Virus record (IMG/VR): IMGVR_UViG_2740892271_000013
Source: a virus
Taxonomy: Duplodnaviria > Heunggongvirae > Uroviricota > Caudoviricetes
DNA length: 45,778 nt
Reading direction: 5' to 3' (one strand)
Position 1 is the first letter of the stretch. Each line of letters starts with the position of its first letter. The position numbers and the translations under genes are program-made. Under the pieces are notes generated by a model. It saw only the letters and a list, made by a program, of their open reading frames with translations, had not been told where the DNA came from and made no database searches. Positions 542 through 44,529 of the stretch are shown piece by piece.

Positions 542-1579
542 TTAACGCTTATCCGCCACCAGTTTGAGCGCGTGTTCCAGCACATTAATGTCTGCACCCG
601 CTTTATGGGCATTTTCACTTAAATAACGCCGCCACTGCCGCGCGCCAGGAATACCCTGGAACAAGCCCAACATATGCCGGGTAATATGGCCGAGATACGT
701 CCCCTGGCTGAGTTCACGCTCAATGTACGGATACATGGCGCGCACTACCGCCACCGGATCGGCATCGGTATCCGAGGAACCAAAGATCTCCCGGTCTACC
801 GCCGCCAGAATACCCGGATTCTGATACGCCTCGCGCCCGACCATCACGCCATCCATATGTTGCAGGTGTGCTTTGGCCTCTTCCAGCGACTTGATACCAC
901 CGTTAATCGACATTGTCAGATGCGGAAAGTCACGCTTCAGTTGATACACACGCGGATAATCGAGTGGCGGGATTTCACGGTTTTCTTTCGGGCTTAACCC
1001 CGAAAGCCAGGCTTTACGTGCGTGGATGATAAACATCTCACACTCGCCTTTGCCGGAAACGGTGTTGATGAAATCGCAGAGAAATTCATAGCTGTCCTGG
1101 TCATCGATGCCAATACGCGTTTTCACCGTCACTGGAATCGACACCACATCGCGCATCGCTTTCACGCAGTCGGCAACCAGCTGCGCATTACCCATCAGAC
1201 ACGCACCAAACATGCCGTTCTGCACCCGGTCAGACGGGCAGCCGACATTCAGGTTGATCTCATCATATCCACGCGCTTCTGCCAGCTTCGCACACTGTGC
1301 CAGCGCCGCCGGATCGCTACCGCCGAGTTGCAACGCTACCGGATGTTCTTCTTCACTGTACGCCAGGTAATCACCTTTACCGTGAATAATCGCCCCTGTG
1401 GTCACCATTTCGGTATACAGCAACGTATTGCGGGAAAGCAGACGCAAGAAATAGCGGCAATGTCTGTCCGTCCAGTCGAGCATAGGAGCAATGCTAAACC
1501 GAGAACTCCAGTAAGCGCCAGTTTTTTCAGGCATCACGCTGGTTTGATTAGTTTTCTGTGTTTCAGGATTATCGTGCAT
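542..1579 (-). CDS. dusA: tRNA-dihydrouridine(20/20a) synthase DusA
   Basis: 345-aa translation with DusA-characteristic stretches ([49 protein letters not shown]); the first ~30 codons may be supplied by the integrated element; an alternative internal start (MPEKT...) exists. Confidence 0.9.
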
Positions 1580-38682: not shown

Positions 38683-38915
38683 GCTGCACCTCCGAGATGC
38701 TTCATGTTTTTTCCGGAGCGAAAGGCTATAAGCGGCATACTGACGCGGTAATTACGGCCCAGCGGTTCACAAATCACCTTCTGGCATTCACGGTCAACCA
38801 GGCTAACACGTAGAACATGCCCTGCAGGCGTGGTGTACCACTGCCCAACTGTAGGAATTGATATTTTTTTACGCTGAAGCAAACGGCAAATATTGAGGAT
38901 CAACGGATTAAGCAT
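38679..38915 (-). CDS. Hypothetical small protein
   Basis: 78-aa ORF overlapping both neighbours by a few nt. Confidence 0.35.
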   Translation of the reverse strand: MLNPLILNICRLLQRKKISIPTVGQWYTTPAGHVLRVSLVDRECQKVICEPLGRNYRVSMPLIAFRSGKNMKHLGGAA

Positions 38916-39744
38916 GACGATGCCCTCCGCTGATATTCAGGAGACGGTGAATATGAAAATTAGCCTTATCCGCCAGACGAATACGTTCAGCTTGCAAGTT
39001 AAGAAGGGTTTCTACCAGAACCTGATGTGCCTGCGGATCCGAAAGAGTTACCTTGCGCAGAGCACGTAGTGCAGTTGTTACATAACTGAGTTTATGTAAG
39101 TCTTCATCATTCAGACGAGTGAGGGCTGGGACAGTAGCCATGATGGCAGCCTCCTTGATCGGTGAAATACTTCCACCACCGGAAACGCCAATTTCGCTGG
39201 TGGTGAACTGAACGGGGTTGGCGTAACCGGTGATCAAGGAAACCGGCGCATCTTTCGATGCCCCCGCCCAGCCCACCATAACTTTGATGTGAGCAAATGC
39301 GGACGATAAAAAAGACGCTGGCGCGTCATATATCGCCTTGATCAATTCCAGGACGCCAATCCCGGCACCCGCTTTATAAGGTGCCTGAACAGTGTAACGT
39401 CCCGGAATGGCAGAATCAATGTGCTGGTGGTCCTTCACACTCAACAAAATCACGCCTGAATTTCCACAAAGGACTAAAGCACTCATGCGGGTAGTCTTTG
39501 CGAAGATAGATAACGCGCTGTGTTTCTGGCTCCCAACGAATAACATGAACATAAAGTCCTCTTCCGTCACGAAACCAGCGGTTAAGTTCCTGCACAACTC
39601 GCCCCCCACAGTCAGGTAAAGTTCTCTGTGGTTACTTACAGCCAGGTGATTTGGTAATCTGCATTCATGCCGTAACAACAGGTGTTCAGCGACGCTGACC
39701 ACCAGCTGTTGCGACAAACGGTTATTTGCCGTTAAACTGTTCAT
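38908..39744 (-). CDS. Hypothetical protein of unknown family in the early-right operon
   Basis: 278-aa ORF between cII-like and O-like genes; Gly-rich segments (AGAGIGV, SGGGS); no recognised motif. Confidence 0.45.
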   Translation of the reverse strand: MNSLTANNRLSQQLVVSVAEHLLLRHECRLPNHLAVSNHRELYLTVGGELCRNLTAGFVTEEDFMFMLFVGSQKHSALSIFAKTTRMSALVLCGNSGVILLSVKDHQHIDSAIPGRYTVQAPYKAGAGIGVLELIKAIYDAPASFLSSAFAHIKVMVGWAGASKDAPVSLITGYANPVQFTTSEIGVSGGGSISPIKEAAIMATVPALTRLNDEDLHKLSYVTTALRALRKVTLSDPQAHQVLVETLLNLQAERIRLADKANFHIHRLLNISGGHRHA

Positions 39745-40304
39745 GCGTTAGTTTCTCCACAGACACAAAACGCCACGACGCCCGGAGCTGCACACTCGCG
39801 GGCGTCACTCTTTTCTGGAGCGCAAAAGATTTTGTAGACCAGTGCTGCATGCTCCTGGAGCTTCGAAATTGACAGATACAACTCATCATTAATTGCTGTC
39901 TGCTCGTGTGGCTCCACTACCCCATCTTCGATTGCCGAACGAATCTGCTTTGAGTAACTCCCGATCTGTTCGATGACTTCCAGCAGGCGCTGGTTTATAT
40001 CGGCGTTCTCTACTTCCTCAATTTCAGGAAGCGATACAAACACCCCACCAGCAGACTGTGCGACAGCATCCGCAATGTAGTGAGTGCCAGCCGCGCGCTG
40101 TAAAATCATTGCCCATCCCAGCGGGAAAATCTGATCGCCATCTGCACGAAGGCGGTTGAATAAAGCGTTCTCTGTTACATCCAGCCACTCAGCAGCTTCA
40201 GCGTAACCCCCCGGCAACGCCGCGATAGTTTTTCTGACAGCTTTCACGTACCACTCAGGCTGTTTTTCTACTTTCCAGTGATGCTTACCCACGGTTAGCC
40301 TCAT
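39741..40304 (-). CDS. CII-like regulatory protein (YdaT/Phage_CII-like)
   Basis: 187 aa; position directly downstream of cro-like gene; helix-turn-helix-like segment AEAAEWLDVTENALFNRL. Confidence 0.45.
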   Translation of the reverse strand: MRLTVGKHHWKVEKQPEWYVKAVRKTIAALPGGYAEAAEWLDVTENALFNRLRADGDQIFPLGWAMILQRAAGTHYIADAVAQSAGGVFVSLPEIEEVENADINQRLLEVIEQIGSYSKQIRSAIEDGVVEPHEQTAINDELYLSISKLQEHAALVYKIFCAPEKSDARECAAPGVVAFCVCGETNA

Positions 40305-40335
40305 CGTTCTGTGGTTAAAAATTGAAGGTGTTCTG

Positions 40336-40536
40336 TTAATCTTTCGGATAGATATCCGGTCTTAAGTCAGATTTCGTAATTGCACCTGACGTGCATTGCT
40401 CAAGTTTTTTAGCCAGCACAAAACTGGCTTTTTTATAACCATTGAAAACCAGCCGTAAGTAGCCTGGTGTTGAGCCAACTTTTCCGGCCAACTCACCCTG
40501 CTGTTCTTTGGTTAAAGAGTCCCAATACGCTTTCAT
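40336..40536 (-). CDS. cro: Cro-like repressor (helix-turn-helix)
   Basis: 66 aa MKAYWDSLTKEQQGELAGKVGSTPGYLRLVFNGYKKASFVLAKKLEQ...; GGAGGT ribosome-binding site; divergent from cI across an operator region. Confidence 0.7.
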   Translation of the reverse strand: MKAYWDSLTKEQQGELAGKVGSTPGYLRLVFNGYKKASFVLAKKLEQCTSGAITKSDLRPDIYPKD

Positions 40537-40542
40537 ACAATA

Positions 40543-40620
40543 TGTACCTCCGGTATACATATTACATGATTGAGATGAACCTTCAAGATACTTGTACCTT
40601 ATCGGTACAAAGGTTTTAAT
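40543..40620. promoter_or_regulatory. Immunity switch: operators (A/T)TGTACC-N5-GGTACA(A/T) with divergent PR-like and PRM-like promoters
   Basis: Perfect palindrome TTGTACCttatcGGTACAA (40592-40610) and related ATGTACCtccggTATACAT (40543-40559); minus-strand TTGAAG-N16-TAATAT; plus-strand TTGTAC-N17-TTTAAT ending at the cI ATG. Confidence 0.55.
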
Positions 40621-40626
40621 TTCTTT

Positions 40627-41301
40627 ATGAAAACAGTCCATGACATCCGGCGGTCTAACGCCAGAAAACTGAGAGATGGTGTTGGCGGGAATTCTTCCTT
40701 TGCCACCATGATTGATCGCGAGCCAACCCAGACCAGCAGGTTTATGGGAGATGGTGCAACTAAAAATATCGGTGACAGCATGGCACGGCACATCGAAAAA
40801 TGTTTCGACCTGCCTGTCGGATGGCTTGATCAAGAACACCAGACAACGAACATCACAAAAAAACCTGACGTTTCAATCACTAACAAACAAATAACGTTAG
40901 TCCCTGTCATATCATGGGTACAGGCCGGAGCATGGAAAGAAGTTGGCTATTCTGAGGTTGATTTGAGCACAGCAGAAACTTATCCCTGCCCTGTACCCTG
41001 TGGCGAAATGACTTATATCTTGCGGGTGATTGGTGATTCAATGATTGATGAGTACCGCCCGGGAGACATGATTTTTGTTGATCCTGAAGTCCCTGCCTGC
41101 CACGGTGACGACGTTATTGCATTGATGCACGATACAGGCGAAACCACCTTCAAGCGGTTGATAGAAGATGGAACACAGCGTTATCTCAAAGCATTAAACC
41201 CAAACTGGCCTGAGCCTTACATTAAGATTAACGGTAATTGCTCTATAATTGGTACAGTGATTTTCTCAGGAAAACCAAGAAGATACATAATAAAGGCCTA
41301 A
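40627..41301 (+). CDS. cI: CI-like repressor (XRE-type helix-turn-helix plus S24 LexA-like peptidase domain)
   Basis: 224 aa; C-terminal autocleavage domain with Ser (VIGDSM) and Lys (TTFKRL); N-terminal helix-turn-helix. Confidence 0.8.
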   Translation: MKTVHDIRRSNARKLRDGVGGNSSFATMIDREPTQTSRFMGDGATKNIGDSMARHIEKCFDLPVGWLDQEHQTTNITKKPDVSITNKQITLVPVISWVQAGAWKEVGYSEVDLSTAETYPCPVPCGEMTYILRVIGDSMIDEYRPGDMIFVDPEVPACHGDDVIALMHDTGETTFKRLIEDGTQRYLKALNPNWPEPYIKINGNCSIIGTVIFSGKPRRYIIKA

Positions 41302-41312
41302 TCAATATTTAT

Positions 41313-41337
41313 AACCTGCTTCGGCAGGTTTTTTTAT
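41313..41337 (+). terminator. Rho-independent terminator downstream of cI
   Basis: ACCTGC-ttcg-GCAGGT followed by TTTTTTTAT. Confidence 0.65.
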
Positions 41338-41339
41338 AC

Positions 41340-41367
41340 TTGACAATGTACCTTTGGGATACATAAT
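41340..41367 (+). promoter_or_regulatory. PL-like early-left promoter (TTGACA-N16-CATAAT) with embedded operator
   Basis: -35 TTGACA 41340-41345, -10 CATAAT 41362-41367; spacer holds ATGTACCtttggGATACAT, a third copy of the immunity operator. Confidence 0.6.
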
Positions 41368-41805
41368 GTATCTAAAAGAAACACAGCACAGGCAAGATTA
41401 AACAAAATTTGGTTGTAACACGGCGTATGGCACATGCGTCGTTAGCGGTCTGGGGACGTTAAAGGGGACAATCCACTCCTTGCTCGGGCAAACAAACCAG
41501 GTAGCCGGAATGTGCAAGTCAATGATGATGCTGATAAGACGCCTAACCAGCGTGGCGATTCGGTTTGACGCCTGGGAAGAGACCAGGGTGCAACGATGAG
41601 GACATTTATGGAACCGCGACAAAGTGTGGTGCCGTAACTGGCTAAGTGCTCTCAGCGTTGTGGTGAATGCGCAGGCTGATGCGCGAAAGACATTGCAGCT
41701 AATGCGGAAAAGAGCTGTTCGGCGGGGCAATTAAACGCCCGTGAGAGTCTGAAATAACCGCAAGCCGGAGATCAGCACCGGTCACCACAACAGCCACTGC
41801 TTTGG

Positions 41806-41850
41806 CGGTACCAGTTTGTACACTTGCTTCCGGCTGGTACCGCTCTTTTT
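41806..41850 (+). terminator. Strong rho-independent terminator inside the early-left leader
   Basis: 9-bp stem CGGTACCAG/CTGGTACCG with 18-nt loop followed by CTCTTTTT. Confidence 0.55.
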
Positions 41851-41936
41851 ACAAAACAGAGAAGAGCATCACCGGACGACGGGCTCATAACCAAATCCAT
41901 CCGGGCGGCTGCCACCGCAGGTGTTCTTCTCTGTTT
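41851..41936 (+). promoter_or_regulatory. Long inverted repeat (16-bp arms) forming a large stem-loop just upstream of the first early-left gene
   Basis: ACAAAACAGAGAAGAG (41851-41866) pairs perfectly with CTCTTCTCTGTTTTGT (41921-41936); GC-rich 54-nt loop. Confidence 0.45.
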
Positions 41937-41987
41937 TGTGGAGAAACCAACCGACCTTGCAGGGTCGATATGATTAGGAGCAGCAAA

Positions 41988-42350
41988 ATGGCTAGCGAAC
42001 GCAGTACTGATGTGCAGGCATTTATTGGGGAGCTGGACGGCGGCGTATTTGAAACCAAAATCGGCGCAGTTCTCAGTGAAGTCGCTTCCGGTGTGATGAA
42101 CACGAAAACCAAAGGTAAGGTCTCACTCAACCTGGAAATCGAACCATTTGATGAGAACCGTGTGAAAATCAAACACAAACTCTCATATGTTCGCCCGACT
42201 AACCGCGGGAAAATTTCCGAAGAAGACACCACCGAAACGCCGATGTATGTCAATCGCGGTGGTCGCCTGACTATTCTGCAGGAAGACCAGGGACAATTAC
42301 TGACTCTTGCCGGTGAACCTGACGGAAAACTCCGCGCAGCAGGTCATTAA
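41988..42350 (+). CDS. Early-left protein, YfdP-like (uncharacterised)
   Basis: 120 aa from the ATG preceded by AGGAG (MASERSTDVQAFIGELDGG...); the longer listed ORF uses a TTG in the leader. Confidence 0.55.
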   Translation: MASERSTDVQAFIGELDGGVFETKIGAVLSEVASGVMNTKTKGKVSLNLEIEPFDENRVKIKHKLSYVRPTNRGKISEEDTTETPMYVNRGGRLTILQEDQGQLLTLAGEPDGKLRAAGH

Positions 42351-44247: not shown

Positions 44248-44529
44248 ATGAATACCTTGTTTTTACTGATGGCTGAATTCAATACCCCAAACATTGAACT
44301 CTCAGCAGTTAGTCAAAAATACTTTGGTATGAGTCCAGCCACAGCAGAAGCAAAAGCAAACGCTTGTAAGTTGCCTGTACCTACATATCGCATCGGTACA
44401 TCACAAAAAGCAAAACGTTGCATCAATATTCAGGATCTTGCGGAATACATAGACAAAAGACGAGAAGAAGGACGTATCGAGTGGGAACAGGTCAGAACAG
44501 GCAAACAGAAGGGCAAAGAACATCACTAA
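44248..44529 (+). CDS. Small DNA-binding protein, PrtN/excisionase-like candidate
   Basis: 93 aa with GGAG ribosome-binding site; basic C-terminus; weak resemblance to excisionase/PrtN-type winged-helix proteins. Confidence 0.4.
   Translation: MNTLFLLMAEFNTPNIELSAVSQKYFGMSPATAEAKANACKLPVPTYRIGTSQKAKRCINIQDLAEYIDKRREEGRIEWEQVRTGKQKGKEHH

Follow-up and report, generated by a model that had tools for sequence, protein, structure and literature searches.

Genes and promoters of the locus

The window, which is the whole 45,778-nucleotide stretch of viral DNA that was analysed, carries two divergent regulatory genes, cro on the minus strand and cI on the plus strand, separated by a 90-bp gap (Table 1). 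The first-pass annotation had named these genes from the sequence alone. Domain and family matches bear this out, giving an S24 cI-type repressor and a Cro-type HTH protein. No start codon lies between the preceding in-frame stop and the cI ATG at 40627; two relatives carry mis-called cI starts.

Table 1. Features of the cI/cro region and the adjoining early promoter (positions in the window).
Feature	Position	Strand	Sequence	Remarks
cro gene	40336-40536	-		YmfT/CroE type, 66 aa HTH protein; from ORF list
Operator O-a (OR1-like)	40542-40560		ATGTACCtccggTATACAT	about -8 to +11 of cro promoter
cro Shine-Dalgarno	40547-40551	-	GGAGG	within O-a spacer
Proposed cro -10	40559-40564	-	TAATAT	read from sequence; under scan threshold
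Weaker conserved site O-m (OR2-like)	40575-40593		ATGAACCttcaaGATACTT	two-mismatch match; covers cro -35
Proposed cro -35	40582-40587	-	TTGAAG	16-bp spacer to -10; read from sequence
cI -35	40592-40597	+	TTGTAC	17 bp upstream of TTTAAT; position follows from mapped K-12 start
Operator O-b (OR3-like)	40592-40610		TTGTACCttatcGGTACAA	perfect palindrome, zero mismatches; over cI -35 and spacer, centred -26
cI -10	40615-40620	+	TTTAAT	nnTAAT conserved
cI repressor gene	40627-41301	+		YmfK/CohE type, 224 aa; S24 repressor
Intrinsic terminator of cI transcript	41313-41337	+		7-bp stem, 4 G-C pairs, T-run; from terminator scan
PL-like early promoter	41340-41367	+	TTGACA-16-CATAAT	11/12 consensus match; after cI terminator
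Operator O-c	41346-41364		ATGTACCtttggGATACAT	fills spacer of PL
Possible second PL site O-c2	41366-41384		ATGTATCtaaaaGAAACAC	two-mismatch match; about -8 to +11 of PL

The cI protein matches Pfam Peptidase_S24 (1.5e-26) and PHROG repressor families. Its C-terminal domain matches the lambda cI structure 1f39 (1.8e-9), and residues 1-73 of the N-terminal domain match the SPC32H repressor 5d50 (E 9e-4), including the MKxxxDIRRxN start. No Pfam HTH_3 match was found in cI at an E value of 0.01 or better. The Ala-Gly cleavage site A100-G101, S138 (GDSM) and K176 (FKRL) are invariant in relatives. Judged from its sequence, cI is an N-terminal HTH domain joined to a LexA-type S24 self-cleaving C-terminal domain with a Ser/Lys dyad. 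The Cro protein matches Pfam YdaS_toxin and HTH_3, both under the gathering score, and PHROG 35 transcriptional repressor (3e-15), with a weak match to the solved phage Cro structures 8co2 and 8c7k. The same gene is annotated as cro in SfV and as ymfT in E. coli.

The cro and cI promoters each score 8/12, which is under the promoter-scan threshold of 9/12. In the proposed cro -10, relatives keep the A at position 2 and the T at position 6 without exception and in register, and among them the TTG of the cro -35 (CAA on the plus strand) is conserved at 1.7-2.0 bits. The cI -10 does not have A at position 2, where that base is usually essential. Its TAAT is kept 6-7 nt ahead of the cI ATG in relatives, with unconserved bases in between.

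A leaderless cI transcript had been suggested on the grounds that TTTAAT ends shortly before the start codon. The distance is six bases (40621-40626), as claimed. The transcription start of ymfK in E. coli K-12 is the A of the ATG, with a leader of 0 nt (Romero et al. 2014, dRNA-seq, PMC4681348 Table S3), and the TTTAAT-6 nt-ATG arrangement of the window recurs in K-12 e14. Both the published start and the identical promoter layout support the suggestion; together they indicate a start at or near the A without a Shine-Dalgarno sequence. The cI transcript of the window prophage is therefore predicted to start at A40627 and to be leaderless, which would place it in the class of leaderless repressor mRNAs with lambda cI, racR, dicA and ymfK. 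The supplement of PMC4681348 contains no transcription starts proximal to cro or PL. This fits repression of the two promoters in e14-carrying cells, and is not evidence for it.

The cI terminator is annotated in SfV and Ayreon and is conserved in relatives. The PL-like promoter that follows it is annotated as a promoter in phage Ayreon. Among 23 distinct relatives its TTGACA is invariant and its -10 nearly so. The first-pass annotation described this promoter as leftward, with its spacer filled by an operator. The filled spacer stands, but the promoter reads rightward in the window, as cI does. Similarity to SfV and e14 stops 10-13 bp past O-c2. Past about 41397 lies a different early-left module (leader, yfdP and yfdQ) that is common to mEp460. 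A search of 41300-42050 gave no Rfam families, and the predicted folding of the PL leader was no better than that of shuffled sequences (z = 0.01).

Predicted operator sites and their conservation

All three 19-bp palindromes reported earlier, in the cI/cro region and at the PL-like promoter, are present in the window. The earlier coordinates are right for O-b and O-c. O-a had been placed at 40543-40559, which leaves each end one base short. The total is probably five sites rather than three. O-m and O-c2 are absent from the earlier account.

The placement of the sites on the promoters also agrees with what had been proposed. O-a shares the last 2 bp of the best candidate cro -10, and it covers the predicted cro start site and the cro Shine-Dalgarno as well. 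O-b holds the cI -35 and most of the spacer. The centre of O-m is at -43 relative to the cI start. Several partially symmetric operators with one consensus (O-a, O-m and O-b) thus lie over both divergent promoters, and a second set is found at the early promoter beyond cI, with O-c in the PL spacer and O-c2 immediately after PL. The site centres lie at 40551, 40584 and 40601 in the cro-cI gap, with steps of 33 and 17 bp, and at 41355 and 41375 near PL, 20 bp from each other; 754 bp separate the two groups.

The pattern WTGTACC-N5-GGTACAW with up to two mismatches has three matches in the window, which are the three strong sites only; shuffled sequences give 0.34 on average, and 1 of 100 shuffles reaches three. 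Relaxing the pattern to WTGTAYC-N5-GRTACAW gives three matches at up to one mismatch (0.12 expected; three reached in none of 100 shuffles) and six at up to two mismatches (1.05 expected), five of them within 40542-41384. These statistics are partly circular, since the pattern was built from the same sites; the independent support for the motif comes from relatives. The sixth two-mismatch match (44383-44401) lies inside the PrtN-family gene and was taken as chance, about one such match being expected.

The comparison with related prophages that had been put forward as a check gives a consistent picture, in which half-sites are near-invariant, spacers are free and the distances between sites are fixed. 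The footprint set consists of 21-22 distinct sequences from about 15 genera, with repressor identity of 73-99%, and has no indels between sites. Conservation per column is 1.84 bits in the half-sites of O-b against 0.45 in its spacer, and 1.91 against 0.53 in O-c. The half-sites of O-a reach 1.77 bits (21 distinct relatives). Its spacer is partly conserved because the cro Shine-Dalgarno lies there; the CCTCC is invariant in the 21 relatives. Among the 81 near-identical sequences formed by the window and 80 IMG/VR loci, polymorphism sits in spacers and between sites.

The motif also tracks the repressor type. All 105 fetched loci with this type of repressor (identity of 73% or more in the genome and phage sets) contain exact matches to the core TGTAYC-N5-GRTACA, at the same fixed positions and nowhere else; the six fetched loci with other repressors lack it. 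In the relatives that keep the sites, the candidate recognition helices of both proteins (REPTQxSR in cI, GYLRLVFNG in Cro) are conserved too. No distant relatives with both an altered recognition helix and altered half-sites were found in the genome and viral-contig scans: repressor identity in the genome scan drops from 73% straight to 38% or less, and all loci found in the viral-contig scan are at least 99% identical. The loci of low identity do not have the motif.

It is possible, though unlikely, that only the three strong palindromes are operators and that the sequences at O-m and O-c2 are conserved for other reasons, such as a promoter -35, a spacer or initial transcribed region, or a regulator such as a CII-like protein. 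Each of the two has two mismatches in core positions, and chance alone should give about one two-mismatch match per window. The cro -35 falls on the spacer of O-m. In O-c2 the right half is semi-conserved, at about 1-1.34 bits per column, and is missing in some loci (L012 and L014). Against this, the ATGAACC half of O-m is near-invariant in 22 distinct sequences (GTGAACC in one) even though its position, inside the spacer of the cro promoter, is one on which RNA polymerase puts little sequence constraint, and its left flank varies. The right half of O-m is the canonical GGTAC in most relatives. The ATGTAYC left half of O-c2 is kept in nearly all relatives although it is in the PL discriminator region. 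Both extra sites hold exact register with the strong sites.

Proposed switch and its relation to known systems

The region very likely serves as the immunity switch in a lambdoid prophage of the e14/SfV type. The closest systems are Shigella phage SfV, the E. coli cryptic prophage e14 (ymfK/cohE and ymfT/croE), cdtI, Ayreon, 2H10, SfIV and the Stx2c phages. Across cro, the intergenic region, cI, the terminator and PL, nucleotide identity to this group is 95-100%; over 40300-41394 it is 95.6-100% for E. coli genomes and phages. The fetched e14/SfV-type loci have cI proteins with 99-100% identity. The genes, sites and spacing of this group are the same as in the window, and the differences are point differences only, mostly in spacers. 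The right half of O-a is TATACAT in the window and TGTACAT in K-12, and O-c2 starts with ATGTATC rather than the ATGTACC of e14/SfV. The GenBank record of SfV marks a "putative operator region" that corresponds to 40542-40610, with borders exactly at O-a and O-b.

The observed sites, their clustering and conservation, the protein families and the promoter geometry suggest the following scheme, in which the pairing of proteins with sites, the order of filling and the activation from O-m are inferred. Repressor dimers and Cro dimers would both recognise WTGTAYC-N5-GRTACAW. In a lysogen, repressor on O-a at the cro start and on O-m at the cro -35 would shut the operon of cro, the CII-like gene and the replication genes, and repressor on O-c, probably on O-c2 too, would shut the strong PL-like promoter. 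The latter would read into yfdP-yfdQ and then toward the PrtN-family (Xis-like) gene. Repressor would be supplied from the weak promoter TTGTAC-17-TTTAAT, on an mRNA beginning at the A of the AUG. O-b, lying over the -35 and spacer of this promoter, would give negative autoregulation, and O-m, centred where lambda OR2 sits, may stimulate it. Upon induction, DNA damage would cause the repressor to cleave itself at A100-G101 with stimulation by RecA, and repression would be lifted. Cro would then bind the same sites and turn the cI promoter off.

No binding experiment on these sites was found in the literature covered, and the papers in it that mention ymfK or ymfT contain nothing on the operators. 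The other literature describes YmfK/CohE only as a CI-like, SOS-sensitive repressor.

The likeness to lambda lies in the divergent cI and cro genes, the S24 self-cleaving repressor with a C-terminal domain homologous to that of lambda cI, the partially symmetric operators over PR-, PRM- and PL-like promoters, and the weak cI promoter with an mRNA from the AUG. Lambda OR2 is centred at about -42, and O-m at -43 is comparable. The operator sequence TGTACC-N5-GGTACA (19 bp) differs from that of lambda, and the N-terminal domain of cI is not detectably similar to its lambda counterpart. The window also departs from the lambda layout of three operators each at OR and OL, 23-24 bp centre to centre: its OR centre spacings are 33 and 17 bp (24 and 23 in lambda), and PL has two sites instead of three. 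According to PMC3851460, no N gene is reported for this phage group.

The best palindrome is on the cI -35, unlike in lambda, and not at the cro promoter. The position of this most symmetric site on the repressor's own promoter counts against a lambda-like scheme. If affinity follows symmetry, cI would shut itself off first. The K-12 ymfK start is detectable in e14-carrying cells despite the symmetry of O-b, so a lambda-like occupancy order is tentative. In addition, O-m and O-b abut, and their distance (about 1.6 helical turns) is awkward for lambda-type pairwise cooperativity. There is a small chance that the switch logic is different from that of lambda, with five sites whose spacing is fixed across about 15 genera. 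Such a design would place a perfectly symmetric site over the -35 of the repressor gene itself and a further site 33 bp away at the cro start. O-m would be deliberately weakened; its ATGAACC half is almost never "repaired" to ATGTACC. Since the cI N-terminal domain resembles the SPC32H repressor, a tetramer with non-lambda geometry might read the abutting O-m and O-b.

It is slightly more doubtful still that one regulator alone, either repressor or Cro, uses the sites, or that a repressor tetramer bridges the abutting sites in a way unlike lambda. Among solved structures, the closest to the cI N-terminal domain is the repressor Rep of Salmonella phage SPC32H. As summarised in PMC9638917, this repressor binds palindromic DNA as a tetramer, with DNA-binding pairs from different dimers, and is inactivated by an antirepressor. 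A second point for this reading is that O-m and O-b form a 36-bp composite of invariant spacing. However, the relation to SPC32H Rep is confined to the N-terminal domain, and the C-terminal domain of cI is of the lambda cI/LexA S24 cleavage type rather than the SPC32H type. In characterised lambdoid switches, the repressor and Cro share operators, which argues against a single regulator. The helices of both proteins are co-conserved with the sites.

The terminator scan flagged 40592-40610, a 7-bp stem with AGGTTTTAAT behind it, which raised the possibility that the palindromes work as RNA hairpins, either attenuators or terminators, and not as protein-binding DNA. This was rejected on position and conservation as extremely improbable. 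O-b is upstream of both divergent starts (the cI ATG at 40627, by the K-12 orthologue, and the cro -35 at 40587-40582), and O-c sits in PL between its -35 and -10, past the cI terminator, so these sites are outside normal transcripts. The stems are invariant, without compensatory changes, and all sites repeat one half-site sequence. Relatives do not conserve the T-run that follows O-b.

Prevalence and use of the proposed operator map

Of 5426 complete E. coli genomes, 1324 (about a quarter) carry at least 80% of the region. Carriers of the cassette include K-12 e14, Stx2c phages and cdt phages. The switch is of the ordinary, catalogued e14/SfV type, and its main features were already known. 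It follows a textbook lambdoid design and raises no new biological question, and its value is mainly for annotation. The five-site operator map with its fixed geometry, together with the leaderless start, helps gene callers to place cI starts. The map also helps to predict superinfection immunity groups and to design reporter or induction experiments.

Sites and promoters of the cI-cro region

The window has three 19-bp palindromes, the putative operators O-a, O-b and O-c, near the divergent genes cI (a YmfK/CohE-type repressor) and cro (YmfT/CroE-type). These are the only matches in the 45,778 bp searched to the strict consensus of the first-pass annotation with up to two mismatches. That annotation placed O-b and O-c correctly, but its O-a (40543-40559) was one base short at each end. 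Since the pattern was derived from those very sites, match statistics are not the footing of the case: the strict consensus gives 3 matches against 0.34 expected (three reached in 1/100 shuffles), and WTGTAYC-N5-GRTACAW gives 3 against 0.12 with at most one mismatch (three reached in 0/100 shuffles) and 6 against 1.05 with at most two, five of the six being within 40542-41384. The sixth match lies within a PrtN-family (Xis-like) gene, with a chance expectation of about 1.

Features of the region and its surroundings (window positions; conservation in bits per column, half-sites/5-nt spacer)
Feature	Position	Strand	Sequence or score	Conservation	Remark
O-a	40542-40560		ATGTACCtccggTATACAT	1.77/1.52	cro Shine-Dalgarno CCTCC in spacer
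O-m	40575-40593		ATGAACCttcaaGATACTT		conserved in relatives; absent from first-pass list
O-b	40592-40610		TTGTACCttatcGGTACAA	1.84/0.45	perfect palindrome; spacer free
O-c	41346-41364		ATGTACCtttggGATACAT	1.91/0.53	spacer free
O-c2	41366-41384		ATGTATCtaaaaGAAACAC		conserved in relatives; absent from first-pass list
Operator-like match	44383-44401		ACATATCGCATCGGTACAT		two mismatches
cro promoter, best reading	40587-40582, 40564-40559	-	TTGAAG-16-TAATAT, 8/12		below scan threshold
cI promoter	40592-40597, 40615-40620	+	TTGTAC-17-TTTAAT, 8/12		six bases, then ATG 40627
PL-like promoter	41340-41367	+	TTGACA-16-CATAAT, 11/12
Sigma-70-like sequence	41222-41249		TTAAGA-16-TATAAT, 10/12		in cI 3' end, upstream of cI terminator
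cI ORF	40627-41301	+			224 aa
cro ORF	40336-40536	-			66 aa
C4 antisense RNA	39196-39283	-	82 bits		Rfam, gathering level
isrK	39308-39384	-	64 bits		Rfam, gathering level
Mechanical ORF	38908-39744				278 aa
PL leader block 1	41645-41686
PL leader block 2	41754-41795

The cI protein has a Peptidase_S24 domain (1.5e-26). The best solved-structure similarity of its C-terminal part is to the lambda cI C-terminal domain (1f39/1kca, 1.8e-9), residues 1-73 align with the Salmonella phage SPC32H repressor (5d50, 9e-4), and relatives show no variation in the self-cleavage motifs A100-G101, GDS138M and FK176R. The cro ORF encodes a Cro-type HTH protein, and a gene of the CII (CP76) type lies downstream of it. 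In E. coli SCPM-O-B-8794 the cro frame (L006, ~1208-1410, minus strand) extends to 133 aa and diverges past ...DLRPD, which suggests fusion to downstream sequence by deletion or frameshift.

As had been proposed, one palindrome overlaps the cro -10, one contains the cI -35 and one fills the spacer of PL, the PL-like early promoter past the cI terminator. O-a reaches TAATAT and spans about -8 to +11 of the cro promoter, including the cro Shine-Dalgarno, while O-m spans -41 to -23. Relatives keep the TTG of the cro -35 and positions A2 and T6 of the cro -10 without variation and in register. O-c2 spans about -8 to +11 of PL. The cI -10 has no A at position 2.

The short distance between the cI -10 and ATG, from which a leaderless cI had been suggested, is present in the sequence and identical in K-12 e14. 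In E. coli K-12, ymfK is one of five leaderless mRNAs (Romero et al. 2014, PMC4681348); its transcription starts on the initial base of the start codon, a leader of 0 nt (Table S3, PMC4681348), which supports the suggestion. Relatives retain nnTAAT 6-7 nt upstream of the ATG, with the intervening bases free and no usable Shine-Dalgarno. In Hafnia phage yong2 (L003) cI is annotated at 1723-2280 (558 nt) from an internal ATG, the conserved MKT start being at 1606; in Edwardsiella phage EPP-1 (L004) it is annotated at 1520-2254 (735 nt), stretched upstream through the operators, with the MKT start at 1586. These inconsistent starts are probably a gene-caller artefact of a leaderless start lacking a Shine-Dalgarno.

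Conservation across genera and populations

A one-genome-per-species scan gave 19 loci (repressor identity 73-99%), including Escherichia, Atlantibacter, Pseudocitrobacter, Leclercia, Klebsiella, Phytobacter, Enterobacter, Pantoea, Trabulsiella, Kluyvera, Limnobaculum, Rahnella, Edwardsiella and others, to which yong2 and EPP-1 were added. The cro-cI intergenic alignment (22 distinct sequences) has zero indels between sites. In 23 distinct sequences the order 3' of the cI stop is constant: terminator, TTGACA, ATGTACC-N5-GrTACAT, AATGTAyC. The 81 near-identical sequences (the window and 80 IMG/VR loci) comprise 28 variants of the intergenic region and 25 of the PL region, and the polymorphisms are located in spacers and between sites.

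The exact core TGTAYC-N5-GRTACA is found in 105/105 fetched loci carrying a repressor of this type, always at one fixed set of positions and never elsewhere. It occurs in 0/6 loci with other repressors, among them mEp460, which has a downstream module in common with the window and a different immunity region. The candidate recognition helices REPTQxSR (cI) and GYLRLVFNG (Cro) are kept across relatives having the sites. The comparison with related prophages thus finds the sites in register and the motif tracking the repressor type; together with helix conservation, this is the sequence pattern expected of operators read by cI and Cro.

Proposed switch and alternatives

An ordinary lambdoid switch is very probably the arrangement here. 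With repressor bound at O-a and O-m and at O-c and O-c2, the cro and PL operons would be silent, and the weak promoter would give a leaderless cI message. O-b would mediate autorepression of the cI promoter, which O-m could stimulate; relative to a +1 at 40627, the centre of O-b falls at -26 and that of O-m at -43, and the lambda OR2 centre is at about -42 relative to PRM. RecA-stimulated self-cleavage at A100-G101 would result in prophage induction, and the same sites would then be used by Cro. There is evidence for the sites, the protein families, the promoter geometry and the start site; the order of occupancy, the cooperativity, the activation and any looping between PL and the intergenic operator set (OR) across 754 bp are inferred.

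Two features fit poorly with a simple lambda copy: unlike in lambda, the most symmetric site (O-b) is on the repressor's own promoter, and O-m adjoins O-b, 17 bp from centre to centre. An unlikely alternative is that a repressor tetramer reads the sites in a non-lambda manner; the cI N-terminal domain resembles SPC32H Rep, which according to a summary in PMC9638917 is a tetramer that binds palindromes with DNA-binding pairs from different dimers.

The lambdoid switch as drawn includes O-m and O-c2. The left half of O-m is almost invariant, with A in place of the consensus T; its right half reads GGTAC in the majority of relatives, and it overlaps O-b by two bases. O-c2 has a nearly invariant left half and an only semi-conserved right half, missing from some loci. 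It is rather unlikely that O-a, O-b and O-c are the only operators. In Pantoea stewartii and an Enterobacteriaceae MAG (L016, L017), GGTACA occurs 17 and 14 nt past the post-PL -10 half-site (standard 5), possibly the right half of the second PL site in a shifted position.

O-b as an RNA hairpin or terminator, as flagged by a terminator scan, is rejected: it is outside known transcripts, its T-run is unconserved and its stems are invariant, with no covariation.

Neighboring modules and distribution

Nucleotide similarity to SfV/e14 ends at 41394-41397, 10-13 bp past O-c2; therefore, the repressor's travelling cassette includes both PL sites. From 41401 a different module (leader, yfdP, yfdQ) is common to phages of other immunity types (mEp460, for example, at 99%), placing a mosaic joint at 41394-41401. 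A leader query (41385-41990) matches 116 phage records. The untranslated PL leader (600 nt) has two short blocks that hardly vary among widely differing phages (mEp460, Klebsiella-infecting IME207, Enterobacter phage Tyrion and Erwinia phages) and whose genomic context differs in the other phages. Rfam has no match for the blocks. Block 1 has a boxA-like TGCTCT and a GCGCA/TGCGC hairpin, or could be a tiny ORF (41624-41734, 36 aa). Most e14-type relatives (K-12 e14 (L005), L009-L015, L019, L023) have a well-conserved leader motif, CAGGCAGGACGCCCACGAAGTAGCCGCC..., ~25-55 nt past the PL -10, which the window lacks. The yong2 leader has a tRNA-Gly(CCC) gene (2472-2545) ~130 nt past the promoter; the whole window has no tRNA genes.

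The C4 and isrK matches are within the mechanical ORF, which is named 'orf37 immunity region' in SfV and split by PGAP into two genes, one ash-family and one DUF4222. The stretch 39196-39384 resembles an antisense/antirepressor module of the P1/P7 immI or Gifsy IsrK type, which would be a second immunity layer in the cro operon.

The region 40300-41450 is the immunity region of the e14/SfV phage group. It has 95-100% identity to the E. coli ymfT-ymfK region, at least 80% of it is covered at one place in 1324 of 5426 complete E. coli genomes, and its identity to phages cdtI, Ayreon, 2H10, SfV, SfIV and a series of Stx2c phages is 95-98%. The SfV GenBank entry has a 'putative operator region' mapping to 40542-40610, exactly from the first base of O-a to the last base of O-b, and the Ayreon record annotates a promoter at 41340-41367 preceded by a terminator. 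No binding experiments for these sites were found in the searched papers that mention ymfK or ymfT; later literature describes CohE/YmfK simply as SOS-sensitive and CI-like, a repressor. This very common prophage switch had been catalogued before and its leaderless start is already published, and the additions made here are modest: corrected coordinates, a cross-genus footprint and two extra conserved sites at fixed spacing.
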